Shown one piece after another: positions 1,043 through 38,287 of a DNA stretch of 64,000 nucleotides (the stretch's first letter is position 1; each line of letters starts with the position of its first letter). The notes under the pieces were generated by a model. The model had not been told where the DNA came from. It saw only the letters and a program-made list of their open reading frames with translations, and did no database searches. The stretch is from the IMG/VR virus record IMGVR_UViG_3300020577_006835, positions 68,588 to 132,587 of that record; one strand, given 5' to 3'. The DNA comes from a virus (Duplodnaviria > Heunggongvirae > Uroviricota > Caudoviricetes). The position numbers and the translations under genes are program-made.

Positions 1043-1607
1043 TGTCCTTGGTCTGAACAAGACGATTCCGGTCTTGGACCTGGAGCCGTTGGAAGAAGTG
1101 TACTCTCTCGACATTGCGCGAGAGAACCTGCTCGCCCTGTCGCGAGCGGCCGCGCTTGGGGGAGAAGAGTCGGAGGCCGTGGCCGAGACGGCCGATCTGG
1201 TCACCAAGGCCTTCCAGACCGACCTCAAGACGGTCCAGATCGCCTACGGGCGCGCGATCGCCAACCGCAGGACCATCCTGCTGGGGCTCATCGACTCGAT
1301 CGAGAAGAAGCTCAACACCAAGCGTGTCCTGACCAACGACGAGCTGCTCCGCTACCAGATGAACGCGTGGCGCATGGTCATGGACATCACCAAGACCATC
1401 GAGGACACGGTGCAGAACCCGCCGATCGGTGTCGGTGGTGAGCGCTCCGCTGCCCGCGGCCCGCAGACCGAGAAGAGCGTGCAGGACCTCAAGCGTGAGC
1501 GCGCAGCGCGCGACGTCATGCGTGAGCTGCTGGAGCACGTCGACAAGGAGCTGAAGGGGCGACTCGACGTCGTCGCAGAGAGGCCTGAGAAGGAGCCGGC
1601 AGAGTGA
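1011..1607 (+). CDS. hypothetical coiled-coil protein directly upstream of terminase large subunit; small-terminase candidate
   Basis: ORF 1008..1607; stop overlaps GTG start of next gene (GTGA at 1604-1607). Confidence 0.5.
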   Translation: MAEEKPNSKDDVLGLNKTIPVLDLEPLEEVYSLDIARENLLALSRAAALGGEESEAVAETADLVTKAFQTDLKTVQIAYGRAIANRRTILLGLIDSIEKKLNTKRVLTNDELLRYQMNAWRMVMDITKTIEDTVQNPPIGVGGERSAARGPQTEKSVQDLKRERAARDVMRELLEHVDKELKGRLDVVAERPEKEPAE

Positions 1608-4600: not shown

Positions 4601-4987
4601 AAGCAGCACATCGAGTCGCGTGAGATCAGCATGGACATCACGCCCGCGCCGTACCTGACGCTGCAGTCAGCGTTCAACGCCGGCTGCATCTCGTACTACC
4701 GGTACCCGACGTTCCTGACCGAGGCGACCAGGCTGCAGAAGGACCCCAAGACCGGCAAGGGCGACCACCCGATCGGAGGGTCGAAGGACGTGCTCGACGC
4801 CGTGACCGGCGCCCACTACGCCTGCTTGATGTCGAAGTCGACCGAGATGCAGATGGCTGCGCCCCACCTCATCGTGCGCGGCATCACACCCCCGAGGCCG
4901 ACGGCCCCGGAGGTCAAGAACTGGGCGGCCAAGGACTACAAGGACTTCGACTCCATGGTCGACATCTTCGATGACAGCCTCCGCTGA
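1604..4987 (+). CDS. terL: terminase large subunit (ATPase/nuclease), interrupted by one intein
   Basis: Extein reconstitutes Walker A GGSIGCGK|TTAAML once the intein is removed; Walker B-like GGIMDEVAF; about 704 aa extein. Confidence 0.85.
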   Translation: MTPDEVRKKLAASLEEEIDLQIEKEKQRLFSSRDGVDSALKALIKSSGRADLLYYFKDLPEECKDQVYDILRARLQNPTAPRGEFEKVIWEPDYEEQPISIEEFLQSKYHIGKWYYENIFPKWKEEITQVINKGCIEWVLGGSIGCGKCVEASTLINTDEGFATIRDVYWGNTLGPDTCSAVQAESGVREIQQVHDEGVTETRRLRTKHGHVLEGRPNHRVRVLGPDLSLSWKTLGEIEPGDCVLEQPATVFGKTDLPSEVAELLGWFIAEGVREEGSPKAAVNTARLHLHDDEIDYVEQLARRAAEFLQADVSVSREYRYVSVTGGRVRDVFPSGTSKVKTVPDSILTGTRETICAFLRGFFSGDGHSGPVECSAVTVSQCLAEQVRVLLTSLGMYCSLTTSTASYRLAGERIVTGDKYLIRILGPDSLKQFAEEIGFAQESKQQALIEFATRWSPNSDHSFAFKLSAEQLGVLRELQPRYKPNELPDGVNKRTSPRGLLHRLAKQGCTVRLLRQVEAAGGFLPGPLHRVATGQLLFDTVESVEVSEGHCYDLTVSGDPSYISGGFVSHNTTAAMLITLYKVYVVSCMKDPCGFYTATSIVFGFFSITKDLSKDVEANMLRTRLMESEYFRRAVGMTEEVDDPRRPNAMIFKFPKNIKLVFGSRALHALGQDVFGGIMDEVAFDTSSGGRQVIELYNSIKSRIKSRYMTHAGRVPGILCISSSADKEGDFIDKHMKDAQFKDKTHISSFALYQMKPYSGPTFRVLVGDQSQKSKLLDRVDVDMEQGSIEVVPVDEAPEGFRVENVPVHYWDDYELDIEKALKDISGIPLFSASPFFPNRQKIFQLIDENRKHPFSVDEPILTTADDDYTLESLFDREALFVKPDPYENRFQMRINPGTPRFFHVDLAKSQDSAGLACVHLFGSKKVLRIGQDGRPGETYLPYVYVDFMVRLRPPAEKGEEIDFSKIVSFIFYLQQLGCPIGEVTFDRYQSSHSIQLFKKQHIESREISMDITPAPYLTLQSAFNAGCISYYRYPTFLTEATRLQKDPKTGKGDHPIGGSKDVLDAVTGAHYACLMSKSTEMQMAAPHLIVRGITPPRPTAPEVKNWAAKDYKDFDSMVDIFDDSLR
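2048..3316 (+). mobile_element. intein (423 aa) with LAGLIDADG homing-endonuclease domain, inserted in terminase P-loop after GK
   Basis: Begins with Cys after GCGK (codon tgt at 2048); ends ...GFVSHN followed by Thr (aac at 3314-3316, acc next); internal LGWFIAEG and FLRGFFSGDG LAGLIDADG-like motifs; block F/G YDLTVSGD..VSHN. Confidence 0.8.
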
Positions 4988-4998
4988 GCTGCGATACC

Positions 4999-5304
4999 AT
5001 GACCAAGCGTCAGGCGATCAGGGCTACGGCCAAGCGGATGGGTATCCAGGACGCTGTCCTGGAGAAGCATGTCAATGAGTTCTTCAAGTACGTGGCGGAG
5101 GCTCTGGTCCTTGGTGAAGAGGTTTGGATCTCTCCGATCGGCAAACTGGTCGTCAAGGAACTGAAAAATACCAAGCGTCGAAGGTTGTGGCTGGAACCGT
5201 GCGCCTCAATGAAGTCGACGCTGAAGCGAAACCCGATCGAGGTTCCTGACTGGTACCGGAGTCTGGGAGTGGTGGTGGAGGAGGAACATGGCACAGCAGA
5301 ATAG
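4999..5304 (+). CDS. hypothetical protein
   Basis: ORF track; coding-like codon usage; between terminase and portal. Confidence 0.5.
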   Translation: MTKRQAIRATAKRMGIQDAVLEKHVNEFFKYVAEALVLGEEVWISPIGKLVVKELKNTKRRRLWLEPCASMKSTLKRNPIEVPDWYRSLGVVVEEEHGTAE

Positions 5305-8300
5305 GGGCAGGTTCAGAGACCTCGTAGCCCGACTCTTCACGCGCGACGAGATCATCGAACCGGTCCGCATGGACGGTGAGCCGTCCCTGAGTCCGATCTC
5401 CTCGTACTACCGGACGCGGATGGAGCTGAGTTCCAACCGCATCAAGAGGTACAAGGACTACCGCGACATGGGCGAGGACACGCTCATCAGCGGTGCGCTC
5501 GACATGTACGCCGACGAGGCCGCACAGTTCGACCGCCAGGAGGGGAGGACCGTCTGGGTCGTCTCCAACAACAAGGAGGTCGAGAAGGCCATCCACACCA
5601 TGCTTGACGCGACCGAGATGGAGGAGCAGATCCCCGGTCTCGCGCGCTACCTGGCTCAGCACGGTGACAACCCGGTCCGTCCTCTGGCAGACAAGAACAA
5701 GGGCATCGTGGCCATGGAGTTCTTGGAGGCCGAGGACTTCGAGCGCCAGGTCGACAAGTACGGGCGCTTGACCGGTTTCAGGATTCTCCCTCTCGGCGAC
5801 CGCAGCTTCGACCCCTGGGACATCGTCCACTTCAGGATCATGAACCGCACGCAGACCGTGCGGCAGGGTGGCAGCATCTACGGCACGTCCGTGCTGGAGA
5901 ACGCTCGCAAGACGTGGAGGCAGCTCTGCCTTGCCAAGGGGACCACGATCTGGACCACGGCAGGGCCGAAGAGCATCGAGGACGTCCGGGCCGGCGACGA
6001 TGTGTTCTGCCACGACCCTGACACCGGCGAGACGGCTCAGACACGCATCGTGGCTGCCAAGGCGATGGGTCGGCAGAAGCTCGTCCGGGTGCAGACCGAG
6101 CACCGGGAGCTGTTCGTCACCCCGGATCACGGCCTGCTCGCGAAGACGCGTGGTGGTGAGTTCGTCTACAAGAAGGCCGAAGACTTGGTCCAGAGCGAGG
6201 GGCAGGCGGGCAAGCTTTTCCGCGATGCGGATCAGCTGGTGCTGCCCAGCTTGGATGGCGGCGTCGACCACCACGTCATCAAGCTGAACCCGAAGGACTA
6301 CTATGTCCACCTGAAGGAGCCAGCGCAGTACGACTCGGACGGCGTCGTGGGTCGGCTGTCGGACTTGGGGCTCAGCACGAGCCTGAAGAACGCACACGGG
6401 TTCCTCGCCGCAAAGCGTGGCATCCGACTCGATGACTTCTGCAAGCTGCGCCGGGCGTTCTTCGGTGGTCAGCACCCGGACATGGTGGTGACCTGCGGCA
6501 AGAGCACGCGGCCGACGGTGGCGAGCTTCGGTCCGGCCAACGACCGGCCGTTCTTCGTCGCTGGCAGTGACTTCGTGCGTCTCCTAGGTTTCATGCTCGG
6601 CGACGGCTGGGTCAACGAGGGTGGGCGGATCGGCTTCGCGCTCGGCGTCGACGAGAAGCAGAACGAGGCCTACCGGCAGCTCTTCGAGGAGATGTTTCAC
6701 GTCGAGATGGCGACGGTGCCTTCGAAGCCGGGGCAGGGTGGGCAGCACTACGTCGGCTCGATCGACATCGAGAAGATCTTCAACGCGGCCGGGTTCGTGA
6801 CTGGGTTCGCGAACAAGGTCGTCCCGGAGTGGGCCTACAACCTGTCGCCGTGGCTCAAGGTGCACCTGATCCGGGGCATCATGGACGCCGACGGGTGTGA
6901 GGGCGACGGTCGCCTCACCGTCGCCAACGAGCAGCTCGCGCGTGGCGTGCACACGCTCTGCCAGCAGGCTGGCCTGCGGGTGAGCCGGAAGATCAGCACG
7001 CAGGATCGTGAGGACCGTCAGCGCTCGTACCGGTTCTGGGTGGAGAAGATCCCGCTCATGGATCGGTGGATGCCAGAGGCCGTGGTGTACGAGCGTGTCA
7101 CGCACGTCGACCCGGCTGGTGAGGGCGAGACGTACGATCTTCAGGTCGACGACGACCTGCACAACTTCGTCGCCAACGGCGTGGTGTCGCACAACACGCT
7201 GCTCGAAGACCAGCTCGTCATCTACCGTCTGGAGGTTGGCGGCAGGCACCGCGTCTTCTACATCGACGTCGGCACCGCTTCGCACGAGCAGGCGCTGGCC
7301 ATCACCAGGAAGTACGAGCGGCAGTTCGGCAGGAAGCAGTACTTCAACCCGCAGTGTCTGACTGCCGACACCAAGGTCTTCACGCTCGACGGCCGTCAGT
7401 TGCGAATGGATGAGATGGCGGCTGAGGTTGCGGCTGGCAAGCAGCAGTGGGTGTACAGCTACGACATCAACAAGAAGAAGGTTGTCCCGGGTAGAGTGTT
7501 GTGGGCAGGCAAGACCGGCGCAGCGGTGCGTGTGTGCCGTGTCCAGCTCGACAACGACACGTCCGTCATGTGCACGTTGGACCACCGGTTCCTGGTGAAG
7601 CGTGACGATGGCAAGCGTCACGAGTACGTCGAGGCGTCGAAATTGCAGCCTGGCGATTCGATCACGCCGGTCAACTTCAAGCTGTCTGACAAGGGTCAAG
7701 GTGACCTACTGTCCGGTTACAGAATGGTGTGGCAGGACAGGTTCGACAACTACCAGTATGTGCACCGTGCTGTAGCCCACGCGGCGATTGGCACCCCGAG
7801 GAGAGCCGACGGCACGTTCCAGCCGGACTACCTGGTACACCACCAGGACTTCAACAAGCTCAACAACGCGCCTGAGAATCTGGAGTGGAAGACTCACCAG
7901 GACCACGTTGACCACCATGAGAAGCACTCGAAGAACCTGGAGCTGGGCCGCATCAGGCTGCAGGAGATTCTCAGCGGTGAGGAGCGTGAGGAGTACCTCT
8001 CCAGGCGTGAGAGGGCGAGACAGGAGGCTATCGCAGCGAACCCGGAGCTGCGTTCAAGACTGGCGGAGGCGTCGGCGGCAACGCTGAGAGCGTGGAACAA
8101 GTCGGACAGGGCCAAGGTCGAGCGGAAGAAGTCGATGACAGCACGCTGGCAGGTCAAGCCGGCTGAGATCACTGACTCACTGGTTCGGGGCAAGGTGAAC
8201 TCGGTCTTCGCGGAGTTGAAGCGCAGGAACCTTCCGATCACCGAGGAGGCGTGGAACTCAGTTGCTCGTCAAGGGCAGATCTCGTGGGTGAAGGCGAAGA

Positions 8301-9286
8301 CCAGGTACCCAGAGATGTTCAACTTCAACCACAAGGTCGTCTCCGTGACGGTCGGTGGCAAGGAGGACGTCTTCGACATCGTCGTCGAGCAGTACCACAA
8401 CTTCGCTGTGGCTCTCGAAAACGAGAGCGGCGTGTTCGTGCACAACAGCGGCGAGTGGACCTCGCGCTTCACACCGCTGCAGCTCACGTCCGAGATCTTC
8501 TGGCCGATCCGCGGCGAGTCGGCATCCCGGATCGAGTACCTGGGCACCGACCCCAACGTGCAGGGAATCGCCGACCTGGACTACTTCCGCAACAAACTGT
8601 TCGCCAGCTTGAAGATCCCCAAGGCGTACATCGGCGGCGACGAATACTCGTCTGCCCGCTACGGCCTGGCGCAGATCGACATCGCCTTCGCACGCTCCGT
8701 GCAGCGCCTGCAGCGCGCCCTGATCAACGGCATCACGCGCATGGGTCAGATCCACCTCGCCTTCCTGGGCAAGGACCCGACCCAGGCCGAGAACCAGTTC
8801 CAGATCATGATGAGCCCGCCGTCGACGCTGGACCAGGAGCAGCGCATGGAGGCGCTGGACCTGTCACTCACGCTGTCGATGAAGATGAAGCAGATCGGCG
8901 AGGCGCTCGGCCTCGATGACCAGGCTCTGAACGCGTACATCCAGAAGACCATGCTCGGTCTGACGCCGTACGACCTGAGCCGCATCACGGCGCAGATGCC
9001 AGGCGCGCAGCAGGATCAGGGGTTCAACCCACAGGTCATGGACCACCTGATCAGGACCGTCAACGGAGACCCGGAGGCGGCCGGCTACCGCCCTCGTGGC
9101 GAGCGTGGCGACGACATCTTCCCCAAGCTGGGTGACCAGGGGATTCTGGCCGAGTCGCTGGTGGGCTCCTACAGGTCGGAGGCTGACAAGCTCGGCTTCG
9201 AGGAGTTCTTCGGCGAGACCACCGAGGAAGAGGTCATGAGGCTGCGCTCCAAGATGCGGGTGTCTGACAAGGCTCCGAAGGGCTGA
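5288..9286 (+). CDS. probable portal protein carrying two inteins (extein about 545 aa)
   Basis: Position immediately after terminase; after removing the two intein-like insertions a portal-sized (about 545 aa) protein remains. Confidence 0.65.
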   Translation: MAQQNRGRFRDLVARLFTRDEIIEPVRMDGEPSLSPISSYYRTRMELSSNRIKRYKDYRDMGEDTLISGALDMYADEAAQFDRQEGRTVWVVSNNKEVEKAIHTMLDATEMEEQIPGLARYLAQHGDNPVRPLADKNKGIVAMEFLEAEDFERQVDKYGRLTGFRILPLGDRSFDPWDIVHFRIMNRTQTVRQGGSIYGTSVLENARKTWRQLCLAKGTTIWTTAGPKSIEDVRAGDDVFCHDPDTGETAQTRIVAAKAMGRQKLVRVQTEHRELFVTPDHGLLAKTRGGEFVYKKAEDLVQSEGQAGKLFRDADQLVLPSLDGGVDHHVIKLNPKDYYVHLKEPAQYDSDGVVGRLSDLGLSTSLKNAHGFLAAKRGIRLDDFCKLRRAFFGGQHPDMVVTCGKSTRPTVASFGPANDRPFFVAGSDFVRLLGFMLGDGWVNEGGRIGFALGVDEKQNEAYRQLFEEMFHVEMATVPSKPGQGGQHYVGSIDIEKIFNAAGFVTGFANKVVPEWAYNLSPWLKVHLIRGIMDADGCEGDGRLTVANEQLARGVHTLCQQAGLRVSRKISTQDREDRQRSYRFWVEKIPLMDRWMPEAVVYERVTHVDPAGEGETYDLQVDDDLHNFVANGVVSHNTLLEDQLVIYRLEVGGRHRVFYIDVGTASHEQALAITRKYERQFGRKQYFNPQCLTADTKVFTLDGRQLRMDEMAAEVAAGKQQWVYSYDINKKKVVPGRVLWAGKTGAAVRVCRVQLDNDTSVMCTLDHRFLVKRDDGKRHEYVEASKLQPGDSITPVNFKLSDKGQGDLLSGYRMVWQDRFDNYQYVHRAVAHAAIGTPRRADGTFQPDYLVHHQDFNKLNNAPENLEWKTHQDHVDHHEKHSKNLELGRIRLQEILSGEEREEYLSRRERARQEAIAANPELRSRLAEASAATLRAWNKSDRAKVERKKSMTARWQVKPAEITDSLVRGKVNSVFAELKRRNLPITEEAWNSVARQGQISWVKAKTRYPEMFNFNHKVVSVTVGGKEDVFDIVVEQYHNFAVALENESGVFVHNSGEWTSRFTPLQLTSEIFWPIRGESASRIEYLGTDPNVQGIADLDYFRNKLFASLKIPKAYIGGDEYSSARYGLAQIDIAFARSVQRLQRALINGITRMGQIHLAFLGKDPTQAENQFQIMMSPPSTLDQEQRMEALDLSLTLSMKMKQIGEALGLDDQALNAYIQKTMLGLTPYDLSRITAQMPGAQQDQGFNPQVMDHLIRTVNGDPEAAGYRPRGERGDDIFPKLGDQGILAESLVGSYRSEADKLGFEEFFGETTEEEVMRLRSKMRVSDKAPKG
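5927..7195 (+). mobile_element. portal intein 1 (423 aa) with LAGLIDADG endonuclease domain
   Basis: Starts CLAKGTTIWT (tgc at 5927); ends YDLQVDDDLHNFVANGVVSHN followed by Thr (aac 7193-7195); internal LLGFMLGDG and IRGIMDADG motifs. Confidence 0.75.
7355..8446 (+). mobile_element. portal intein 2 (364 aa) with HNH endonuclease domain
   Basis: Starts CLTADTKVFTLDG (tgt at 7355); ends DIVVEQYHNFAVALENESGVFVHN followed by Ser (aac 8444-8446); internal HNH motif DYLVHHQDFNKLNNAPENLEW..H..DHH. Confidence 0.7.
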
Positions 9287-9288
9287 TT

Positions 9289-9870
9289 GTGGGCTCCATC
9301 AAGAACCTCATCGACTACGTGAACACCGTCGACGAGATGGTGGAGGACGCCAAGATGTACCTGGACGCCTACGAGAAGGCCCTGCCGTTCACAGGGGACC
9401 GCCGTGAGGTTGTTGTCGACTGGAGCGATCAGGCGTACTACAACGCCGACATGAGCGTGAAGGTAGGCGGAGCCAACACAACGGTGCAGGAGGTCGAGTG
9501 GGACGCCTGGGCCAGGCGGGAGATCGAGAACGCCGAGCTGAAGTACAAAGCGATCCTGAATCGCAACATGGAAGAGGTCAGGGAGGAGGCTCGCAACAAG
9601 ATTGCCGACAAGCTCGCCGCTGACGCGGCCAGGGTCAGGATCGGCAGACTCGACAGGGGCACTCTGATGGGTATCTCTACCGGTCCGACCCCAGAGCTGG
9701 TGACCAAGAAGGCTGGCAAGTCTACATACTACCAACCGCGCCGTCCCAGCCAACCCAACCTCAACCTGCCAGAGCGTGAGGTCATCACCCCGTCCAGGAG
9801 GCGCTCGGAACCGCCACCGCCGACCCGTGACCTGGACCCGAAGCGGGAGATCTCGCTCGAAGATGATTGA
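9289..9870 (+). CDS. hypothetical protein with C-terminal KREISLEDD tail
   Basis: ORF track (GTG start); ends ...KREISLEDD with stop overlapping next start. Confidence 0.55.
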   Translation: MGSIKNLIDYVNTVDEMVEDAKMYLDAYEKALPFTGDRREVVVDWSDQAYYNADMSVKVGGANTTVQEVEWDAWARREIENAELKYKAILNRNMEEVREEARNKIADKLAADAARVRIGRLDRGTLMGISTGPTPELVTKKAGKSTYYQPRRPSQPNLNLPEREVITPSRRRSEPPPPTRDLDPKREISLEDD

Positions 9871-28594: not shown

Positions 28595-29089
28595 ATGCTG
28601 GTGATCTCCGGTGGGCAGTCGGGTGCCGACATCGGCGGAGTGGTCGGAGCGTTCTCAGCCGGCCACTCCTGCCTCTTCATCGCTTTCCGCGGCTTCAAGC
28701 CGCAGGGCCGCGACTCCCTGCCGAGCGTGATCCCGTACAAGGACGCCGTCATGCCCGAGTGGGCAGTGTCCTACCCCCAGATGCTCTTGGCCCGTACGCA
28801 GCACAACGTCGAGCTGGCAGATGCGACCGTGGTCTTCATCAACACGATGCACCTGAAGGACTCGATCGGCTCGCGGCGTACCATGGAGTACGCGCAGAAG
28901 ATGCAGCGTCCTCGACTCCTGCTCACCCTGTTCGGGCAGTCTGATGTCGAGCCGACGGCGAGCGTGTTGTCCGAGTGGGTTCAACGTGTGAAGCCAGAAA
29001 TCCTGAACATTGCAGGAAGCAGAACTTGCGACGAGGACTTGGTGAGTCGCATAACCGAGAAAGGGTTGAAGCAATGCTTGACGGTGTGA
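28595..29089 (+). CDS. SLOG-superfamily Rossmann-like protein (MoCo-carrier/YpsA-like motif ISGGQSGADIGG)
   Basis: N-terminal LVISGGQSGADIGGVVGAFSAG glycine-rich nucleotide-binding-like motif. Confidence 0.35.
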   Translation: MLVISGGQSGADIGGVVGAFSAGHSCLFIAFRGFKPQGRDSLPSVIPYKDAVMPEWAVSYPQMLLARTQHNVELADATVVFINTMHLKDSIGSRRTMEYAQKMQRPRLLLTLFGQSDVEPTASVLSEWVQRVKPEILNIAGSRTCDEDLVSRITEKGLKQCLTV

Positions 29090-30979: not shown

Positions 30980-33046
30980 ATGATGATGAACGTGTTGGAG
31001 TACGCAATCTCGTTCGTGTTGCTGAACGCGCTTTGGGTGGTTCCGCTCGGAGTCGCGCTCATCGTGTCCATGAGATCGCTGCACCAGATCGGCCCCACCG
31101 AGGTCGGCCTGGTGAACAAGCTGTTCAGCTTCAAGAAGCTGGACTCCGGCTCGCCGATCGCCTTCAACGGTGAGGCCGGCTACCAGGCCGAGCTGCTGAC
31201 GCCTGGTCTGCGCTGGAAGACCTGGCCTATCTACCGCGTCGAGAAGCACCCTTGGGTGCAGGTGCCGCCGGAGCAGATCGGCCTCGTGGTGGCCCAGGTT
31301 GGTGATCCGATCCCGGTCGGAGCCAAGTCCGGAGTCTACAAGGAGGTGTTCGGCAACTTCGCCGATCTCAACGCCTTCATCCAAAACGGTGGGCAGAAGG
31401 GTGTGCAGCGCCCCGTGCTTCCGCCGGGCACCATCGCGCCGATCCACCCGATCGGATTCCTGGTATTGACCATGGAACACATGTTCGGTCTCCCTGTGGC
31501 CGACGACTGGCAGGGTGTGGATCACGCTCAGTTCCTGAGGTCGATCGGCCTCAACCCGAGCGACCTGCGAGTGACGCGCATCGAGCCGCAACACGACGAG
31601 CAGTCGGGCAAGGTGGTCGACGTCATCGGCATCGTGACCACGGGCGAGGGTGGACCGCTGCCTTCGACCGACATCGCCGGTCGGCTCGGCGGCTTCGACG
31701 ACATCGAGCAGGCCATCAACAAGGGCATGGACCAGGGTCAGCTGGTCGACATGGTGCTCGGCAACAAGAACACGCTGCACAACAACTACCAGGACTTCCA
31801 GAAGTTCCTGGACAACGGCGGCTGCATCGGTCTGCAGCACGACCCTCTGATGTACGGTGCCTACAACCTGAACCCGTTCCTGGTCGACGTCGAGATCATG
31901 CGCATGACGACCATCGACCAGGGCCAGGTGGGCGTGGTCAAGGCGTACGTCGGTCTCCCGACGCAGGACGTCTCTGGCGAGGCCTTCAAGTTCGGCGTGC
32001 TCGTCTCCCCTGGCCGTCGTGGCATCTGGGCCGAGCCGCTGCGCACGGGCAAGTACCCGATCAACCCGCGCTGCTACCAGATCGAGAAGGTGCCCACGTC
32101 GATCCTCACGCTCAACTGGGCCGAGGCCCGCAGCCGGGCGCACGACCTCGACGGCCACCTGTCGCAGATCGAGGCCAAGTCGAAGGAGGGCTTCGTCTTC
32201 AGGCTCGACCTGCAGGTGCAGATCCACGTCGCCGACAAGAACGCCCCGCGCGTGATCTCGGCCGTGGCCACGATGCAGAACCTGGTCAACGAAGTGCTGC
32301 AGGCGGCCGTGGGCAACCACTTCCGCGACAAGCTGCAGTCGATGGAGGCCGTGCAGTTCATCGAGCGCCGTGGCGAGGTGCAGCAGGAGGCCTACGAGCT
32401 GATCAGGGGCAAGCTGGACGACTACCACGTCGAGACGCCGGGTGTGTACATCCAGGACGTCGTGCTGCCCGAGGAGCTGGTCAAGGTCCTCAAGGAGCGC
32501 GAGATCGCCAACCAGTCGATCCAGACCTTCGAGATGAAGCGGCAGGCCGAGGACAAGCGCACGCAGACCGAGCGCGCCCGCGGTCTGGCCGAGAAGCAGG
32601 CCGCACTGGCAGCCTCCGAGGTCGACATCAAGATCAAGGAGAACAACGCGAGCGCCCGCAAGGCCGAGGCGCTGGGCGAGGCCTCCTACGTCAAGGAGGT
32701 CGGCGAGGCGCAGGCGGCCCCGATCCGTGCCGAGGCACTGGCCCGTGCCGAGGGCATCAGGGCAGAGGGCCTGGCTCGCGCAGAGGGCTACCAGAAGCAG
32801 GTGGCCGCTCTGGGGCAGGGGCCGACGGCGCTCATCAACGCGGTCTCCGAGCTGTCGGACATCAAGACCCGCTTCGTGCCCGAGATCCTGATCAACGGGG
32901 GCGGCGGCAGCACGGCGGACGGCCTGTTCGCCGTTCTCATGCGCTACCTGAGCCTGCCTGGCTCGACGGCGGCCGACATCGAGACCACGGCAGCCAGTGC
33001 CCAGGTGGACGACACCACCAAGGCCAACAACACGCTGCTCTCCTGA
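30980..33046 (+). CDS. SPFH/band-7 (flotillin/YqiK-like) membrane protein, 688 aa
   Basis: N-terminal TM segment, SPFH-like core, long coiled-coil with Ala/Glu repeats (AEALARAEGIRAEGLARAEG) typical of flotillins. Confidence 0.7.
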   Translation: MMMNVLEYAISFVLLNALWVVPLGVALIVSMRSLHQIGPTEVGLVNKLFSFKKLDSGSPIAFNGEAGYQAELLTPGLRWKTWPIYRVEKHPWVQVPPEQIGLVVAQVGDPIPVGAKSGVYKEVFGNFADLNAFIQNGGQKGVQRPVLPPGTIAPIHPIGFLVLTMEHMFGLPVADDWQGVDHAQFLRSIGLNPSDLRVTRIEPQHDEQSGKVVDVIGIVTTGEGGPLPSTDIAGRLGGFDDIEQAINKGMDQGQLVDMVLGNKNTLHNNYQDFQKFLDNGGCIGLQHDPLMYGAYNLNPFLVDVEIMRMTTIDQGQVGVVKAYVGLPTQDVSGEAFKFGVLVSPGRRGIWAEPLRTGKYPINPRCYQIEKVPTSILTLNWAEARSRAHDLDGHLSQIEAKSKEGFVFRLDLQVQIHVADKNAPRVISAVATMQNLVNEVLQAAVGNHFRDKLQSMEAVQFIERRGEVQQEAYELIRGKLDDYHVETPGVYIQDVVLPEELVKVLKEREIANQSIQTFEMKRQAEDKRTQTERARGLAEKQAALAASEVDIKIKENNASARKAEALGEASYVKEVGEAQAAPIRAEALARAEGIRAEGLARAEGYQKQVAALGQGPTALINAVSELSDIKTRFVPEILINGGGGSTADGLFAVLMRYLSLPGSTAADIETTAASAQVDDTTKANNTLLS

Positions 33047-33064
33047 CACAAACGTCTTGAAGGT

Positions 33065-33325
33065 TTGGTAGGATCGTGCGATAGGGCTCGCACACCTGAG
33101 GGGGATGAGTTGGAACGCACGGAGCTGTACCAGTACCTTCAAGAGAATCAGATGCTGATCGAGTCCCTGTCCAACAGTGGCCGGGGGATCTGCAAGCGCA
33201 TCACCAAGCTCAAGAGTCAGCACCTGGAGCATCCGGCTGACCAGGGAGTACTCAGCTCCCTGGTCAGCGCGGTGTCCGAGTTCCGGGCCGAGATGCGACA
33301 ACAGGAGAGGAGGGCCGGCAAGTGA
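33065..33325 (+). CDS. small hypothetical protein
   Basis: ORF track (TTG start). Confidence 0.3.
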   Translation: MVGSCDRARTPEGDELERTELYQYLQENQMLIESLSNSGRGICKRITKLKSQHLEHPADQGVLSSLVSAVSEFRAEMRQQERRAGK

Positions 33326-33528
33326 CCCAGAAGGCCGATAAGGCGATCGAAGCGGTCATGGCCGGCGAAGAGGCGTCCGATGTGGTAGACGCGCTGGGAG
33401 AGGGCGCCTTCTCGGCGGCGATGCCGTTGGAGAGGAGGAGCACCTTCGCAAGATCAGGGAAGGCAGCGGGCACCAGGTACAAGTCGGCCAAGAGGCTGGC
33501 ACCTGTGCCGGTCAAGCCTCCCTCGTAA
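33322..33528 (+). CDS. small hypothetical protein
   Basis: ORF track (GTG start). Confidence 0.35.
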   Translation: MTQKADKAIEAVMAGEEASDVVDALGEGAFSAAMPLERRSTFARSGKAAGTRYKSAKRLAPVPVKPPS

Positions 33529-33539
33529 GGTAGAGGTGG

Positions 33540-33773
33540 ATGGCAGAACGAAAGAAGTTGACGCTGAGGGAAGAGCGGGCACAGCAGAAGAAGATGATGG
33601 CGAAGTACGTGGACAACGTCTTCGCCCACCTGCGCAGGAACCCGGGTCGACCGGTGCCCATGCGCAAGCTCGCCGAGACGCAGGAAATGAAGCCGTGGCT
33701 CCCGCCGGGTTTCCCGGAGGAGATCACGAAGAAGTGGGGCCTGAACTCAGGGAAGCTTGCTGACCTGAGCTGA
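33540..33773 (+). CDS. small hypothetical protein
   Basis: ORF track. Confidence 0.4.
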   Translation: MAERKKLTLREERAQQKKMMAKYVDNVFAHLRRNPGRPVPMRKLAETQEMKPWLPPGFPEEITKKWGLNSGKLADLS

Positions 33774-33793
33774 GGTCCCTTTCGCGTTGTGGT

Positions 33794-34141
33794 GTGGTGG
33801 GGTGGAGGTGGTTGAGAGTGAAAGGATTGGTCCACGCGGAAGAGGGGATCGACTCCTCTCCGATTGTCTGGACGTCTGCAAGGTTGCTCGCTCTGGGTGT
33901 ACTTCACCAGGCGGCACACGATTTCTGGAAGGACGACGACCCAGAAGCTGAGGCTGAGAGCGCACGCGAGTGGTTCTACCAAGGTGATGTCGGCGAGCTG
34001 CCGTACTACCGGGTGTGCCAGGAGCTGCGCATCGACCCGGACTGGTTCCTCGACAGAGTCGAGAGAGACCGTCGCGCCTTCAAGGGTATCCACAGACCGT
34101 CAAGCGCGAACGCACCGATGCGGATCTCGCTGAACGACTGA
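33794..34141 (+). CDS. hypothetical protein
   Basis: ORF track (GTG start). Confidence 0.4.
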   Translation: MVGWRWLRVKGLVHAEEGIDSSPIVWTSARLLALGVLHQAAHDFWKDDDPEAEAESAREWFYQGDVGELPYYRVCQELRIDPDWFLDRVERDRRAFKGIHRPSSANAPMRISLND

Positions 34142-34146
34142 CCCTG

Positions 34147-34173
34147 TTGACAAGCCTGTCATGCGTGTGCTAA
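34147..34173 (+). promoter_or_regulatory. promoter-like motif TTGACA-N14-GTGCTAA
   Basis: gTTGACAagcctgtcatgcgtGTGCTAAaccacccgcATG, coordinates +/-1. Confidence 0.5.
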
Positions 34174-34182
34174 ACCACCCGC

Positions 34183-34410
34183 ATGGCAGACAACCCAAAC
34201 CAAGCACGAGGAGTCGTCAGAGTGTCGGCCCTCGTGCTTGGCCTACTCGCGATCGTCGCGATGTACCAAGGCCTGCACGCCTTCATGAGCGTGGACAACT
34301 ATGAGGGCGGCCGCTGGTACGCAGTCATGGCCCTCGGCTGGGCCATCTACCTGCTGGGCCTCCGAGCGCTGGCGACCGTGCTCGGCTTCATCATGTACGG
34401 GGAACGCTGA
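34183..34410 (+). CDS. small two-TM membrane protein
   Basis: ORF track; hydrophobic segments VSALVLGLLAIVAMY and YAVMALGWAIYLLGLRALATVLGFIMY. Confidence 0.45.
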   Translation: MADNPNQARGVVRVSALVLGLLAIVAMYQGLHAFMSVDNYEGGRWYAVMALGWAIYLLGLRALATVLGFIMYGER

Positions 34411-34411
34411 C

Positions 34412-35497
34412 TTGTACCTGCTGCTCTTGATGGTGGTGCCCCTGGTGGTGGGTGCTGTCGCGATGTTTACCTCGCGCGGCCGAGTCACCTGGAAAGAGTT
34501 CCTGGCCATGGAGGCGCTCTGCCTCTTCCTGCTCGGCGCTGGTGTTTTCATCGCCCGGTGGACGGCCACCTACGACGTCGAGGTCTGGAGCGGCCGCATC
34601 GTCAGCAAGAAGAAGGACTGGGTCTCCTGCGAACACAGCTACAGCTGCAACTGCAGGACAACCGGCAGCGGCAAGAAGAAGAGCACGACCTGCGACACCT
34701 GCTACGAGCACAGCAACGACTGGGACTGGTTGCTCTTCACCTCGAACGGTGAGCGGGTCGAGATCGAGCGCATCGACAGGCGCGGGTCTCAAACACCGCC
34801 GCGGTGGGAGGCTGCCAAGGTTGGCGACGCGACTGCGATCACGCACGCGTTCGACAACTACATCAAGGCCAACCCGGACTCCGTGCTCCGCTTGTCGGGC
34901 ACCATGGAGGCCTACTCTCTGCCCGAGTACCCGAACACGGTCTACGACTACTACTACGTGAACCGAGTGGTCGGTGACGCACCTGTACCCAACAGGCAGA
35001 TGTGGGAGTGGCAGGTCGCAGAGCTGAACGCAGACCTGGGCCGCGCCAAGCAGGTGAACGTGGTCTTCGTCTTCACCAAGCAGGACCCAGGCTTCACCGA
35101 GGCCCTGCGAGAGAAGTGGATCGGCGGCAAGAAGAACGACCTGATCATCATCTTCGGCACCAAGGACGGGACCTTCCTCGACTGGGTCAACATCATCTCC
35201 TGGACCGATTCGGAGATGCTCAAGGTGCAGCTGCGCGATGAGCTGTTGGCCATCAAGGACCTGGGCTACCGAGGCCCGATCCTCGACACCGTCAAGCGCA
35301 TGGTCAAGGAGCAGTTCGTCAGGAAGCCGATGGCCGACTTCAAGTACTTGATGGCCGGCCTGCAGCCTGGGCCAGGAGCGATCGGCGCGCTGTTCTTCCT
35401 GTCGATCGCACTCTCGTGTGGGCTCGTGTTCTGGTTCCACAAGGAAGACGTTTTCGGGGACGAGGATGTCCCTGCAGCATGGAGGAGGAGAGTATGA
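34412..35497 (+). CDS. membrane protein (N-terminal and C-terminal TM helices; Cys-rich segment CEHSYSCNCRTTGSGKKKSTTCDTCYEH)
   Basis: Part of ORF 34301..35497; start set at TTG 34412 just after the previous stop (an alternative ATG is at 34430). Confidence 0.5.
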   Translation: MYLLLLMVVPLVVGAVAMFTSRGRVTWKEFLAMEALCLFLLGAGVFIARWTATYDVEVWSGRIVSKKKDWVSCEHSYSCNCRTTGSGKKKSTTCDTCYEHSNDWDWLLFTSNGERVEIERIDRRGSQTPPRWEAAKVGDATAITHAFDNYIKANPDSVLRLSGTMEAYSLPEYPNTVYDYYYVNRVVGDAPVPNRQMWEWQVAELNADLGRAKQVNVVFVFTKQDPGFTEALREKWIGGKKNDLIIIFGTKDGTFLDWVNIISWTDSEMLKVQLRDELLAIKDLGYRGPILDTVKRMVKEQFVRKPMADFKYLMAGLQPGPGAIGALFFLSIALSCGLVFWFHKEDVFGDEDVPAAWRRRV

Positions 35498-36078
35498 AGG
35501 CAGTAGCAGCAGTCGCAGCGTTGTTCGGAGTGGTCATCGTCTTCGCCCTGGGTGTGGTGCTGGCAGGCGTCGGCTACCGCAACGGCGCCGTGCGCTTCGA
35601 GAACGCGATCGAAGCGTCGTACACCAACAACCAGAACGTGTACGACAACGGGTGGAAGGAAGTGAAGGAGAAGGCGCAGGTGCCGACTCTGGCCGAGAGC
35701 CAGCTGGAGAAGCTCTACAAGTCGGCCTTGCAGGGCCGCTACGGCGACAAGGGGTCGCAGGCCGTGGTCCAGTTCATCCAGGAGCAGAACCCGCATCTGG
35801 AGCCCGCCCTGTACGTGCAGATCCAGCAGTCGGTCGAAGCCTTCAGGCGCAGCTTCACGTCGCACCAGACGACGCTGATCTCGCAGAAGCAGGCCTACAA
35901 GAACTACCTCGACGCCTCGATCAGCGGCATCGTGTTCAACGGTTTCTTCGGCTTTCCGCACATCGACCTGACCAAGTTCGACATCATCACGTCCGACCAG
36001 ACGCAGCAGGACTTCGAGACCAAGAAGTCACAACCGATCGACCTGATCAGCGACAGGCCATTGCAACCGGAGAAGTAA
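35494..36078 (+). CDS. LemA-family membrane protein
   Basis: ORF 35416..36078, start moved to ATG 35494 with RBS; N-terminal TM, then NGAVRFENAIEASYTNNQNVYDNGWKEVKEKAQVPTLAESQLEKLYKSALQGRYG, which is LemA-like. Confidence 0.65.
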   Translation: MKAVAAVAALFGVVIVFALGVVLAGVGYRNGAVRFENAIEASYTNNQNVYDNGWKEVKEKAQVPTLAESQLEKLYKSALQGRYGDKGSQAVVQFIQEQNPHLEPALYVQIQQSVEAFRRSFTSHQTTLISQKQAYKNYLDASISGIVFNGFFGFPHIDLTKFDIITSDQTQQDFETKKSQPIDLISDRPLQPEK

Positions 36079-36386
36079 GCAGTGACGGCTGCTGCACGTG
36101 TAAGCTGACGTGCGACAGCATGGGTCGGTGCAGGAATCACGGCCACTGGTCGTCGGTGACGGCGACAGAAGCGAGTGGGTACGGAGGCGACAACGGCGCC
36201 AGAGTTCCGTCGAAAGGTTCCATGCCAGCCGGGGTGTCCGGGTTCGATCCCTGGGGATACCGCACCAAGTCGGAGGAAGAGCCGACCAGCCGTTCACGAC
36301 CGTGAAACCCATACCGGTTGACAAGAAACGCGGATCTGGGCATAGTCGGTGATCAACGCGAGAGTGGCGAAATTGGCAGCACGCGC

Positions 36387-36833
36387 ATGGGGATGAGCAA
36401 GGAACAAGCACGAGTCTACCACCGCTCCTACTACTACAAGCGGCGACAGAAGCTCTACGATTTCCTCGGTGGAAAGTGCGTGGTGTGCGGTGCAACAGAA
36501 GACCTTGAGTTTGATCACATTGACCCTGCACAGAAGTCGTTCGACATCAAGGATAACCTCACGCTCAGTGAGGCTGTGAAGCAAGAGTTGGAGAAGTGCC
36601 AGTTGTTGTGCCGCGCGCACCACACCGAGAAAACCATCCGGGCGCAGATCAAGGTCAGCTTCGAGCATGGCACGTCGTACGGGTGGCGCAGGGCGCGTTG
36701 TAGTTGTGTAGCGTGCTCGGAGGCCCGCTGGCACTACTACGACAGGCGCAACGCGGCTCGACGTCGCGTGAGAGACAAGCCAAACAAGACCAAGAGACAG
36801 GCTGGGGTGACGGGAACTGGCATACCTCACTGA
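36387..36833 (+). CDS. HNH endonuclease (same family as 24658..25107)
   Basis: ORF 36318..36833, start moved to ATG 36387; GGKCVVCGATEDLEFDHIDPAQK...KCQLLCRAHH; 3' end overlaps the tRNA-like element at 36801. Confidence 0.7.
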   Translation: MGMSKEQARVYHRSYYYKRRQKLYDFLGGKCVVCGATEDLEFDHIDPAQKSFDIKDNLTLSEAVKQELEKCQLLCRAHHTEKTIRAQIKVSFEHGTSYGWRRARCSCVACSEARWHYYDRRNAARRRVRDKPNKTKRQAGVTGTGIPH

Positions 36834-36876
36834 TTCAAAACCAGTGGCACTGTGGGTTCGAGTCCCACCCCCAGTA
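36801..36876 (+). tRNA. tRNA-like gene, anticodon CAA? (irregular D-arm; low confidence)
   Basis: 7-bp acceptor GCTGGGG/CCCCAGT and T-arm GTGGGTTCGAGTCCCAC are good; anticodon stem ACTGA/CCAGT with loop TTCAAAA; D-arm is poor. Confidence 0.35.
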
Positions 36877-36877
36877 T

Positions 36878-36949
36878 ACACCGATAGCTCAGATGGTAGA
36901 GCGCACGACTGATAATCGTGATACGGGAGTTCGATCCTCTCTCGGTGTA
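36878..36949 (+). tRNA. tRNA-Ile (anticodon GAT)
   Basis: 72 nt; ACACCGA TA GCTC AGATGGTA GAGC...CACGA CTGATAA TCGTG...GGGAGTTCGATCCTCTC. Confidence 0.85.
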
Positions 36950-36954
36950 CTCAG

Positions 36955-37028
36955 GCCCACGTAGCACAACTGGATAATGCACCGGACTACGAATCCGGTT
37001 ATTGGGGGTTCAAGTCCCTCCGTGGGTA
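36955..37028 (+). tRNA. tRNA-Arg (anticodon ACG)
   Basis: 74 nt; anticodon stem CCGGA/TCCGG, loop CTACGAA; T-arm GGGGGTTCAAGTCCCTC. Confidence 0.8.
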
Positions 37029-37036
37029 CTTCTCAG

Positions 37037-37110
37037 GGGTCGTTAGCTCAGTGGAGCAGAGCACCACGTTCCGAGCGTGGGGGTCGCAGGTTCGAGTCCT
37101 GCACGGCCTA
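37037..37110 (+). tRNA. tRNA-Arg (anticodon CCG)
   Basis: 74 nt; anticodon stem CCACG/CGTGG, loop TTCCGAG; acceptor has 2 G-U pairs. Confidence 0.7.
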
Positions 37111-37121
37111 CTGAAGCCTGT

Positions 37122-37196
37122 GCGCCAGTAGCTCAGCGGACTCAGAGCGGCGGTTTTCTACACCGAGGGTCGGGGGTTCGATTCCCTCCTGGCGTG
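37122..37196 (+). tRNA. tRNA-Arg (anticodon TCT)
   Basis: 75 nt; acceptor GCGCCAG/CTGGCGT; loop TTTCTAC; T-arm GGGGGTTCGATTCCCTC. Confidence 0.8.
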
Positions 37197-37229
37197 TTGA
37201 AGTAGCAGCAGAAGAAGGAAGGGGAATGC

Positions 37230-37655
37230 ATGAAGAGAAGGATGCGAAAGGCTCTCTTGACGAAGCTCGCCGACTTGTTGGACGACTTCTTCCACACCAT
37301 CAAGCACCTGATTGCCGTGCTGGAGCTGCAGGGTTGGTCGCTGGACAACCTGGCCTTCGGCATGGGCGGCGCGCTGCTGCAGCAGATCGACCGGGACACG
37401 TGTTCCTTCGCCATGAAGGGTTCCTGGGTTCGAGTCGACGGTGTGGAGCGCGAGATCTACAAACAGCCTGTGACCGATTCGAAGAAGAACTCGCTGCGCG
37501 GGCGGCTGGCTCTCATCAAGGATGTCAAAGGACTCTTGACAACAGTAGCTGGTCCGTGCGAAGACGACATCCTCGTCGACACGTATCTCAACGGCGAGGT
37601 GCTCCAGACCTGGGACTACGAACAGGTCAGGGAGCGAGTCCGAGCAGCGATCTGA
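37230..37655 (+). pseudogene. C-terminal fragment (about 140 aa) of a nicotinamide/nicotinate phosphoribosyltransferase (NAMPT-family) gene; the N-terminal catalytic two-thirds are absent from the locus
   Basis: NLAFGMGGALLQQIDRDTCSFAMKGSWVRVDGVEREIYKQPVTDSKKNSLRGRLAL aligns with the NAMPT C-terminus (NIAFGSGGGLLQK..RD..FA.K.SYV..NG.G..VFKDP..D..K.SKKGRLSL); strong RBS; flanked by tRNA and HNH genes. Confidence 0.6.
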
Positions 37656-37751
37656 CCATGAACGACTTCACACACCAGATGCCAAGCCCCGCCAAGGGTG
37701 CGGTTGCGCGACCACGACCGTGGCCGCGACCGTGCCCGTGTCGGTAAGCAT

Positions 37752-37823
37752 CTGGGTGTAAGTCAGTGGCAGACGGCGCCGTTCGGATCGGCGAGGCCGG
37801 GAGTTCGAGTCTCCCCACCCAGA
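37752..37823 (+). tRNA. tRNA-Pro (anticodon CGG)
   Basis: 72 nt; acceptor CTGGGTG/CACCCAG; anticodon stem CGCCG/CGGCG, loop TTCGGAT; T-arm GGGAGTTCGAGTCTCCC. Confidence 0.7.
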
Positions 37824-37825
37824 CT

Positions 37826-38191
37826 CAACCTCCACCCTCCGCTGAGCCTGAGACTGCTCTAGACCGCCGTCGAAGGCGGTGGCGCGAGTGGTACCACCGC
37901 AACAAGCACGATCAGTTCAAGAAGGAGTACTTCAGGAGGACGACGAGGAGAGCGAAAGCCAGGGCTTGGCTGGATAACTACAAGAGGGGGCTGTCTTGTG
38001 CTGAGTGCGGGTTTTCGAACCCAGTAGCACTGGACTTTCACCACACAGATCCGGCGGGCAAGGATTTCAGCTTGGCTGACGCTCTCAACGTCTCTCTTTC
38101 TATCAAGAGGCTGCAAAAGGAAATTCAGAAGTGCGTCGTCTTGTGTGCGAACTGTCACCGGATAGAGCATGCAAGACTGATCGGGATGTAG
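37826..38191 (+). CDS. HNH endonuclease (same family as 24658 and 36387); start codon unclear because the upstream in-frame region (ORF 37766..) runs through tRNA-Pro(CGG)
   Basis: RRRRWREWYHRNKHDQFKKEYF...CAECGFSNPVALDFHHTDPAGK...KCVVLCANCHRIEH; 3' end overlaps tRNA-Pro(TGG) by about 10 nt. Confidence 0.6.
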   Translation, partial: QPPPSAEPETALDRRRRRWREWYHRNKHDQFKKEYFRRTTRRAKARAWLDNYKRGLSCAECGFSNPVALDFHHTDPAGKDFSLADALNVSLSIKRLQKEIQKCVVLCANCHRIEHARLIGM

Positions 38192-38257
38192 CGTAGTCTG
38201 GCCAACGCGCCTGTTTTGGGAACAGGAGACTCGCAGGTTCGAATCCTGTCATCCCGA
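38182..38257 (+). tRNA. tRNA-Pro (anticodon TGG)
   Basis: 76 nt; CGGGATG TA GCGT...CCTGT TTTGGGA ACAGG...GCAGGTTCGAATCCTGT CATCCCG A. The N-terminus of ORF 38216.. is really this tRNA. Confidence 0.75.
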
Positions 38258-38287
38258 CTCTTTCTCATAGTGACCGCCAGGACAACA

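Follow-up and report, generated by a model that had tools for sequence, protein, structure and literature searches.

An SPFH gene and a widespread phage variant of the lemA-TPM gene pair lie side by side in a large uncultured phage

Eight genes and a promoter-like site at the locus

The window analysed here is a stretch of 64,000 nucleotides from a virus of the Caudoviricetes (IMG/VR record IMGVR_UViG_3300020577_006835, positions 68,588 to 132,587), and we studied its positions 30980 to 36078, where eight open reading frames (ORFs) encode an SPFH protein, five small products, a membrane protein with a predicted TPM fold and a LemA-like protein. A sequence-only reading had described this interval as a membrane-remodelling-like operon. 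All eight ORFs were found as that reading had described them, on the + strand and at the coordinates it gave, and their GC content at third codon positions (GC3) is of the coding type (0.74–0.91). The features of the interval are as follows, with TM standing for transmembrane segment and aa for amino acids.

30980..33046, + strand: SPFH/Band 7 membrane protein, 688 aa (Pfam Band_7, N-terminal TM)
33065..33325, + strand: small soluble orphan ORF, 86 aa (GC3 0.77, no TM, called as a gene in sibling contigs)
33322..33528, + strand: small soluble orphan ORF, 68 aa, start overlapping the preceding stop (GTGA)
33540..33773, + strand: small basic soluble orphan ORF, 77 aa (GC3 0.83)
33794..34141, + strand: small soluble orphan ORF, 115 aa (104–107 aa according to gene callers; GC3 0.74)
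34147..34173, + strand: promoter-like site TTGACAAGCCTGTCATGCGTGTGCTAA, with −35 TTGACA and extended −10-like TGCTAA, an exact copy of a recurrent motif
34183..34410, + strand: two-TM peptide, 75 aa (62 aa from a GTG at 34222 according to gene callers), with two hydrophobic segments
34412..35497, + strand: membrane protein, 361 aa, PHROG 2087 (function unassigned), with three TM, a Cys/His domain and a predicted TPM fold
35494..36078, + strand: LemA-like protein, 194 aa, PHROG 1383, ATG overlapping the preceding stop (ATGA)

The intergenic gaps across the eight ORFs are, in order, 18, −4, 11, 20, 41, 1 and −4 nt. A hydropathy scan gave one TM in the SPFH protein, none in the four small ORFs, two in the 75-aa peptide (the topology check agreeing here with the two-TM peptide proposed at 34183), three in the 361-aa protein and one in the 194-aa protein. 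The PADLOC defence models matched none of the eight proteins, and PADLOC and NCBIfam together yielded no meaningful names for them.

The 361-aa protein has a predicted TPM fold

The ORF at 34412 had been described as a membrane protein with a Cys cluster, and this was accurate: the product has 361 aa and three TM, and it carries conserved C73, H75, C79, C97 and H100. TM1 (aa 2–20, or 1–23 in the hydropathy scan) and TM2 (27–53, or 29–53) are followed by a beta-rich Cys/His domain (about 54–150), an alpha/beta domain (about 186–301) and TM3 (321–345, or 320–344), after which the protein ends in a short charged tail. Within the beta domain the five Cys and His residues, together with D103 and W106, are invariant or near-invariant and further Cys positions are common; the conserved Cys and His look like a metal or disulfide cluster. 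In an AlphaFold2 model computed with 63 homologues (pLDDT 93.5, pTM 0.85), the alpha/beta domain, which holds a GGKKND motif at aa 238–243, is predicted to form the alpha-beta-alpha sandwich of TPM proteins. This fold had been overlooked by the sequence-only reading, which hence had also missed the phage counterpart of a lemA-TPM pair at 34412–36078. Pfam TPM_phosphatase (PF04536) does not match the protein itself and was matched by only four of 33 homologues, with a best E of 9e-4. PDB searches with the single sequences of the 688-, 361- and 194-aa proteins returned nothing useful.

The 194-aa protein is LemA-like at the profile level

The 194-aa protein matches PHROG 1383 (E 1.9e-51), a family labelled 'virion structural protein'. 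It had been assigned to the LemA family on sequence, a call that holds at the level of profiles and fails for the protein's own sequence in Pfam: LemA (PF04011) gave no match at E<0.1, and only six of 37 homologues matched it at E<=1 (best E 4.3e-6). When a profile of the 37 homologues was compared with the PDB, the sole match was the LemA structure 2ETD (E 1.3e-5), in two collinear stretches. In agreement with this, hhalign aligned a 63-sequence profile with six canonical bacterial LemA proteins (97.4%, E 1.3e-11, 153 columns), and the alignment spans the protein from its TM helix to a C-terminal FP..GF motif. The AlphaFold2 model is all-helical (pLDDT 88) and consists of an N-terminal TM helix (aa 1–31) and a helical bundle. 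The phage family also has an invariant motif of its own, GRYGDKGSQA..Q.IQEQNP. These comparisons argue for homology with LemA at the superfamily or profile level.

LemA genes travel on other mobile elements too, as indicated by the phage-like C. difficile plasmid pJ21_1 (46 kb), where a canonical LemA gene precedes that of a 268-aa hypothetical protein, near ssb and sigma-factor genes.

The two genes form a cassette found in many large phages

Linkage was assessed in 80 IMG/VR loci retrieved with a profile of the 361-aa protein. A LemA-like gene lies directly downstream of the 361-aa homologue, on the same strand, in 77 of them, with an approximate median gap of 30 nt (76 loci measured), and the SPFH gene, the four small ORFs and the two-TM ORF were found in none of the 80; the conserved unit is thus a cassette of two genes. 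In phage records, tblastn detected homologues of the 361-aa protein in 503 and of the 194-aa protein in 436. These records include Ackermannviridae (CBA120 orf253/254), the Vibrio phage ICP1, T4-like phages of Aeromonas (Aeh1) and Sinorhizobium (phiM7), Acinetobacter myoviruses, jumbo phages of Xanthomonas and Burkholderia, the nucleus-forming Erwinia phage RAY (gp45/gp46) and the Prevotella Lak megaphages. Adjacency of the two genes was read directly in six genomes (CBA120, ICP1, phiM7, RAY, X1 and Aeh1). The predicted two-gene cassette is conserved in hundreds of large virulent phages.

A similar arrangement occurs in bacteria. In four of six bacterial lemA loci sampled, one or two TPM/DUF477/YgcG genes lie directly downstream of lemA; these are plasmid or chromid records of Burkholderia, Legionella, Parabacteroides and Polaromonas. 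A Fusobacterium lemA locus has genes for DUF2207 proteins just upstream instead. Given the bacterial order, the phage pair reads as an order-reversed variant of the module, and it looks like a diverged counterpart of the bacterial lemA-TPM (YgcG/DUF477) pair. No description of the phage cassette, that is, of LemA and TPM together in phages, was found in the literature searched. In hundreds of large phages, two proteins entered under the labels 'hypothetical' and 'virion structural protein' make up a near-invariably linked, LemA-TPM-related cassette.

A recurrent promoter-like motif precedes the pair

The eight genes had been thought to follow one another without promoter-like breaks. This claim did not survive, as an exact copy of the motif TTGACA-N15-TGCTAA occupies 34147–34173 within the widest gap of the region (34142–34182), 9 nt before the ATG of the two-TM ORF. 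The window contains 15 such sites at up to one mismatch, ten of them exact, against 0.07 expected by chance.

11221, 14446 (− strand), 16192 (− strand), 20368, 21558, 24257, 25166, 34147, 37536, 41855, 43566, 51416, 55775, 62545, 63162: TTGACA-N15-TGCTAA sites

The majority of the examined copies closely precede a gene start or a tRNA cluster, and at five exact copies, including the one at 34147, an ATG follows 9–10 nt past the motif. The distance of 9 nt at 34147–34173 is probably the geometry of a leaderless mRNA, and the recurrence of the pattern suggests that this phage makes frequent use of leaderless mRNAs; it may also hint at the transcription and translation habits of the host. A generic scan for sigma-70 promoters and terminators found nothing inside the interval, and the motif at 34147 was missed by the sigma-70 part of it. 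Lying between the two halves of the gene set, the motif points to two transcription units, which would be the most economical reading of the interval. The two-TM ORF probably comes first on the transcript of the TPM-like/LemA-like pair.

The SPFH gene is of a bacterial type

The sequence-only reading had staked its SPFH/Band 7 call on a profile search, and Pfam upheld it: Band_7 (PF01145) matches aa 311–524 of the 688-aa protein with E 1.1e-19 and 71.6 bits (cut-off 23.6), and PF01145 is present in all listed homologues. The N-terminal anchor was likewise recovered by hydropathy, as a TM at aa 5–32; it is followed by a stretch of about 280 aa that matches no family, the SPFH domain and an A/E-rich coiled-coil tail. 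The proposed flotillin-type coiled coil is correct as far as this tail goes and does not extend to a flotillin identity, the NCBIfam FloT equivalog model (NF058507) scoring 17.1 bits against a cut-off of 700, in a weak match limited to the coiled-coil stretch at aa 499–620. We found no NfeD/YuaF/YqiJ-type partner, the seven downstream ORFs being without any Pfam match, and no relative in the PDB, either with the single sequence or with a 29-sequence family profile.

Very many bacterial proteins are about 60% identical to the 688-aa protein over its full length, from Acidobacteria, Armatimonadota, Phycisphaerae and others, and their genes are on chromosome-sized contigs. So close a resemblance to chromosomal genes of bacteria suggests capture, and the SPFH gene is probably a bacterial-type auxiliary gene acquired in that way. 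In both of the bacterial contexts read, the homologue stands alone among unrelated genes. A related phage contig encodes a copy that is 71% identical, and the remaining 3.4 kb downstream of it hold no TPM-like/LemA-like pair. Among sequenced phages, detectable SPFH relatives are confined to eight records, the best being a 642-kb metagenomic phage (34% identity). The statement that a phage-encoded set of this kind is uncommon thus applies to the SPFH gene and not to the 361- and 194-aa proteins: the SPFH gene is uncommon in phages, and the TPM-like/LemA-like pair, a phage variant of a bacterial module already known, is widespread. The idea of a phage flotillin operon shrinks to a host-like auxiliary SPFH gene beside unrelated genes, which is of modest interest.

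The small ORFs are lineage-specific orphans

The four small ORFs and the 75-aa ORF have no match in Pfam, PHROGs, NCBIfam or PADLOC and are absent from 80 of 80 related viral loci. All five were called as genes in sibling contigs, and 1.84 billion representative proteins included only four relatives of the 75-aa peptide. They are lineage-specific orphans. The possibility that a small TM protein is a conserved partner upstream of the pair was considered and rejected, any TM-containing ORF being directly upstream in only 12 of 75 loci; the 75-aa ORF itself, as an orphan, was rejected in this role as well.

NAD+ salvage genes are frequent near the pair

In 25 of the 80 loci, homologues of NAD+ salvage enzymes (NAMPT, NMNAT/Nudix, NAD-kinase-like) are found no more than 10 kb from the pair, and in 24 of these 25 they are downstream of it. 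NAD+ salvage genes are also near the pair in X1, in Aeh1, in two metagenomic contigs and in sibling strains of the phage studied here. The NARP2 pathway has been reported from only about 1.1% of phage genomes (bioRxiv 10.1101/2024.02.11.579819); 25 of 80 looks far above this genome-wide figure, in a count uncorrected for shared ancestry. That the cassette so often lies just ahead of NAD+ salvage (counter-defence) genes is a testable lead.

In the window itself, the salvage genes have been largely lost. What is left is one feature downstream of the pair.

37230..37655, + strand: NAMPT remnant ORF (a fusion), 141 aa (Pfam NAPRTase, E 1.3e-12)

Compared with a sibling contig that is 99.7–99.9% identical, the window has a 2.4-kb deletion (positions 6940–9339 of the sibling), with the blastn junction at 37289. 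The deletion took a Nudix/NMNAT-like gene and the greater part of the NAMPT gene, which are intact in the siblings and encode 314 aa (Nudix) and 464 aa (NAMPT). The window therefore has no intact NARP2 (NAMPT and NMNAT) and has kept the TPM-like/LemA-like pair. Replacement of the NAMPT gene by an insertion of HNH and tRNA genes was rejected as an explanation, since the alignment with the sibling shows a plain 2.4-kb deletion. That the pair was kept through this deletion, and that many phages have the pair and no NAD genes nearby, makes a direct functional dependence unlikely; it is possible that the pair and the NAD genes are members of a common host-takeover or counter-defence block.

On one of the two metagenomic contigs, the pair lies beside NMNAT-like, nicotinamidase, NAD-kinase-like and NAPRTase genes; it is GCA_016181585.1, a 97.5-kb contig of a metagenome-assembled genome assigned to 'Candidatus Sungbacteria'; this contig may be a mis-binned phage or a prophage.

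Genome setting

The window has a GC content of 63% and 20 tRNA genes and belongs to a large uncultured phage. The studied interval sits in an accessory, tRNA-rich part of the genome and not in the structural gene block. No match to the region was obtained by megablast among sequenced phage genomes. Public metagenome contigs, up to 208 kb long, encode proteins that are identical to those of the window or nearly so.

Just upstream of the studied region, at 28595–29089, a 164-aa protein matches Pfam cpYpsA (circularly permuted YpsA SLOG, E 4.7e-20), a family with a nucleotide-binding-type fold. Downstream, at 36318–38260, two ORFs for HNH-type endonucleases (36318–36833 and 37766–38191) are interleaved with seven tRNA genes (Leu, Ile, three Arg and two Pro), and the ends of the HNH ORFs overlap tRNA genes. 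Near the start of the window, the terminase-like gene (1604–4987, 1127 aa) and the portal gene (5288–9286, 1332 aa) are both unusually long and match terminase and portal profiles only in parts, the portal gene having an internal HNH-endonuclease stretch; both probably carry inteins.

Proposed role of the pair and alternative explanations

Net positive charge was found in the loop between TM1 and TM2 and in the C-terminal tail of the 361-aa protein, as well as at the N terminus of the 194-aa protein. This bias suggests that the loop and the tail are cytoplasmic and that the Cys/His and TPM domains lie outside, and it would place the helical bundle of the LemA-like protein outside too. Lipoprotein-type LAGC/LSGC boxes, present in two of the six canonical LemA proteins, likewise indicate an extracytoplasmic LemA domain, and the C-terminal domain of LemA has been predicted to be extracellular or luminal (PMC3905215). 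TPM proteins have been described as adapters, or as factors by which membrane complexes are repaired or assembled, with an enzymatic activity that varies and is absent in AscF (PMC13456599), and TPM and Band 7 proteins have been proposed to be chaperone-like assembly factors in envelope-stress operons (PMC11237479). A Flavobacterium mutant with a perturbed envelope shows induction of lemA as well as of a TPM gene (PMC13236525).

On balance, and with modest confidence, we consider it probable that the interval holds two unrelated modules side by side, of which the second encodes an outward-facing pair for membrane maintenance, this grade being meant for the explanation as a whole. Module A (30980–34141) would consist of the SPFH scaffold gene and the four lineage-specific small soluble ORFs. 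Module B (34147–36078) would be transcribed from its own TTGACA-N15-TGCTAA site into a leaderless mRNA for the two-TM peptide and the coupled pair; a host-type promoter of this kind would suit early expression. In the host cytoplasmic membrane, the TPM-like and LemA-like proteins would join into a complex whose globular domains both lie on the extracytoplasmic side. Their part would be that of chaperone-like or maintenance factors, sustaining the function of the membrane, or of membrane protein complexes, over a long infection. The SPFH protein may have a broadly similar purpose and act independently of the pair. By inference, maintenance of the membrane or of its complexes is the most likely role of the pair and the best-supported guess.

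Several points weigh against this explanation. The promoter is a sequence motif, and upstream transcription may read through into module B. The topology is read from a charge bias of modest size, the cytoplasm would be the more natural place for a Cys/His cluster, and some TPM domains are cytoplasmic, as in AscF (PMC13456599). The TPM call comes from the fold, and hhalign between the 361-aa family and the bacterial TPM partners was not significant. Fold searches with the 194-aa model were non-specific: 2ETD appeared at a Foldseek E of 2.4, and although it gave the best target-normalised TM-score (0.54), this was without significance. The bacterial LemA-TPM module is itself functionally obscure, and the literature searched yielded no experimental study of any component of the phage cassette. 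A tblastn search with the portal protein gave remote matches only and no close cultured relative.

The description of the locus by the sequence-only reading was largely correct, and its interpretation, a single operon in which all eight products cooperate as a membrane platform for replication or assembly, is not supported; we regard it as quite unlikely. All larger products are indeed membrane proteins, the genes share one strand with short gaps throughout, the generic sigma-70 and terminator scan is silent within the interval, and a precedent exists in pspA-ydjGHI, where Band 7, TPM and zinc-ribbon proteins are encoded in one envelope-stress operon (PMC11237479, PMC8581546). Against it stand the exact copy of the promoter motif that splits the two halves, the lack of the SPFH gene and the small ORFs at all 80 pair loci, the solitary SPFH genes of bacteria together with the pair-free 3.4 kb in the related phage, and the failure of Pfam to find a PspA or NfeD partner. 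The pair, with or without the two-TM peptide, could instead be a device for superinfection exclusion or lysis timing at the periplasmic face of the inner membrane. In this it would be analogous to T4 Imm/Sp or the RI antiholin. Small membrane proteins with presumed extracytoplasmic domains behind a host-type promoter suited to early expression would fit, as would the confinement of the cassette to large virulent phages. We nonetheless hold this to be unlikely: neither the sequence nor the fold resembles known exclusion or antiholin proteins, and the cassette is homologous to a housekeeping-type bacterial module and has been kept in phages of widely differing hosts, Vibrio and Prevotella among them, and on contigs binned with candidate-phyla bacteria, which favours a general, receptor-independent function.

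The NAD+ salvage neighbourhood could mean that the pair is tied to phage NAD+ salvage or counter-defence, either as an outward TPM phosphatase that feeds NAD precursors or as an anti-abortive-infection arm. This receives some weight from NAMPT/NMNAT/Nudix genes at 25 of 80 loci, as against about 1.1% for NARP2 overall, and from the phosphatase or ATPase activity of some TPM proteins (PMC13456599). We find it very doubtful, as 55 of the 80 loci have no nearby NAD gene, nor have CBA120, ICP1, phiM7 or RAY; the strain of the window dropped Nudix and NAMPT and left the pair intact; the cassette comes without a transporter; and the synteny may reflect shared ancestry among large phages. A role of the 194-aa protein as a virion structural protein, with the cassette acting in particle assembly, would agree with the label carried by PHROG 1383 and by the homologues of Aeh1, CBA120, phiM7 and Simmy50. 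It appears highly improbable for a LemA homologue with an N-terminal TM anchor whose gene lies among accessory genes and tRNAs, behind a host-type promoter and outside the structural block; furthermore, gp45 and gp46 go unmentioned in the text of the RAY proteomics paper, and the label is not traceable to primary data. A broader view of the pair, as a widespread host-takeover or counter-defence module at the outer face of the cytoplasmic membrane that shields it from pore-forming or membrane-disrupting abortive-infection effectors, or works with NAD+-rebuilding genes, seems quite improbable to us when taken as one claim. If true, it would make the cassette a conserved device to 'keep the host cell alive' across Ackermannviridae, ICP1, T4-like Aeromonas and Sinorhizobium phages, nucleus-forming jumbo phages and Lak megaphages.

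The cassette raises the question of how large phages act on the host cytoplasmic membrane early in infection. Tractable carriers such as ICP1, CBA120 and RAY offer a testable handle on LemA and TPM, two poorly understood families of which the functions of TPM are disputed.

Comparison with known systems

With the FloT/YqiK flotillins, the phage SPFH protein has in common an N-terminal anchor, an SPFH/Band 7 domain and an A/E-rich coiled-coil tail, and some sources label its homologues YqiK or HflC. It differs from them by the roughly 280 unmatched residues between anchor and SPFH domain, by the lack of an NfeD/YuaF-type partner gene and of a PDB relative, and by a score far below the FloT cut-off. 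The pspA-ydjGHI operon of B. subtilis resembles the window in joining a Band 7 protein, a TPM membrane protein and Cys-rich modules (PMC11237479, PMC8581546). In contrast to the anchored phage SPFH protein, YdjI is soluble; a Pfam search of the window found no PspA/IM30 homologue; and the phage SPFH and TPM-like genes are not co-conserved (0 of 80 loci).

MamQ is, like the 194-aa protein, a LemA-type protein with a single TM, and it is required for magnetosome formation (PMC3905215). By analogy, this lends some support to a membrane-organising role for the LemA family. The phage protein is a distant homologue without a magnetosome context, and the partners of MamQ are other Mam proteins, not TPM.

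Comparison can also be made with the bacterial lemA-TPM pair. As in the phage, where both folds are predicted, a gene for a single-TM LemA-type bundle is tightly linked, on one strand, to a gene for a membrane-anchored TPM-fold protein. The order is opposite, with the TPM-like gene first in the phage, and both phage counterparts score below the Pfam thresholds. The YgcG-type architecture consists of a signal peptide, TPM, a TM and a Gly-rich tail, and the phage TPM-like protein departs from it by an added two-TM hairpin and a Cys/His beta domain and by lacking the Gly-rich C-terminal tail. In the bacterial and the phage pair alike, the globular domains of both proteins probably face outward from the cytoplasmic membrane.

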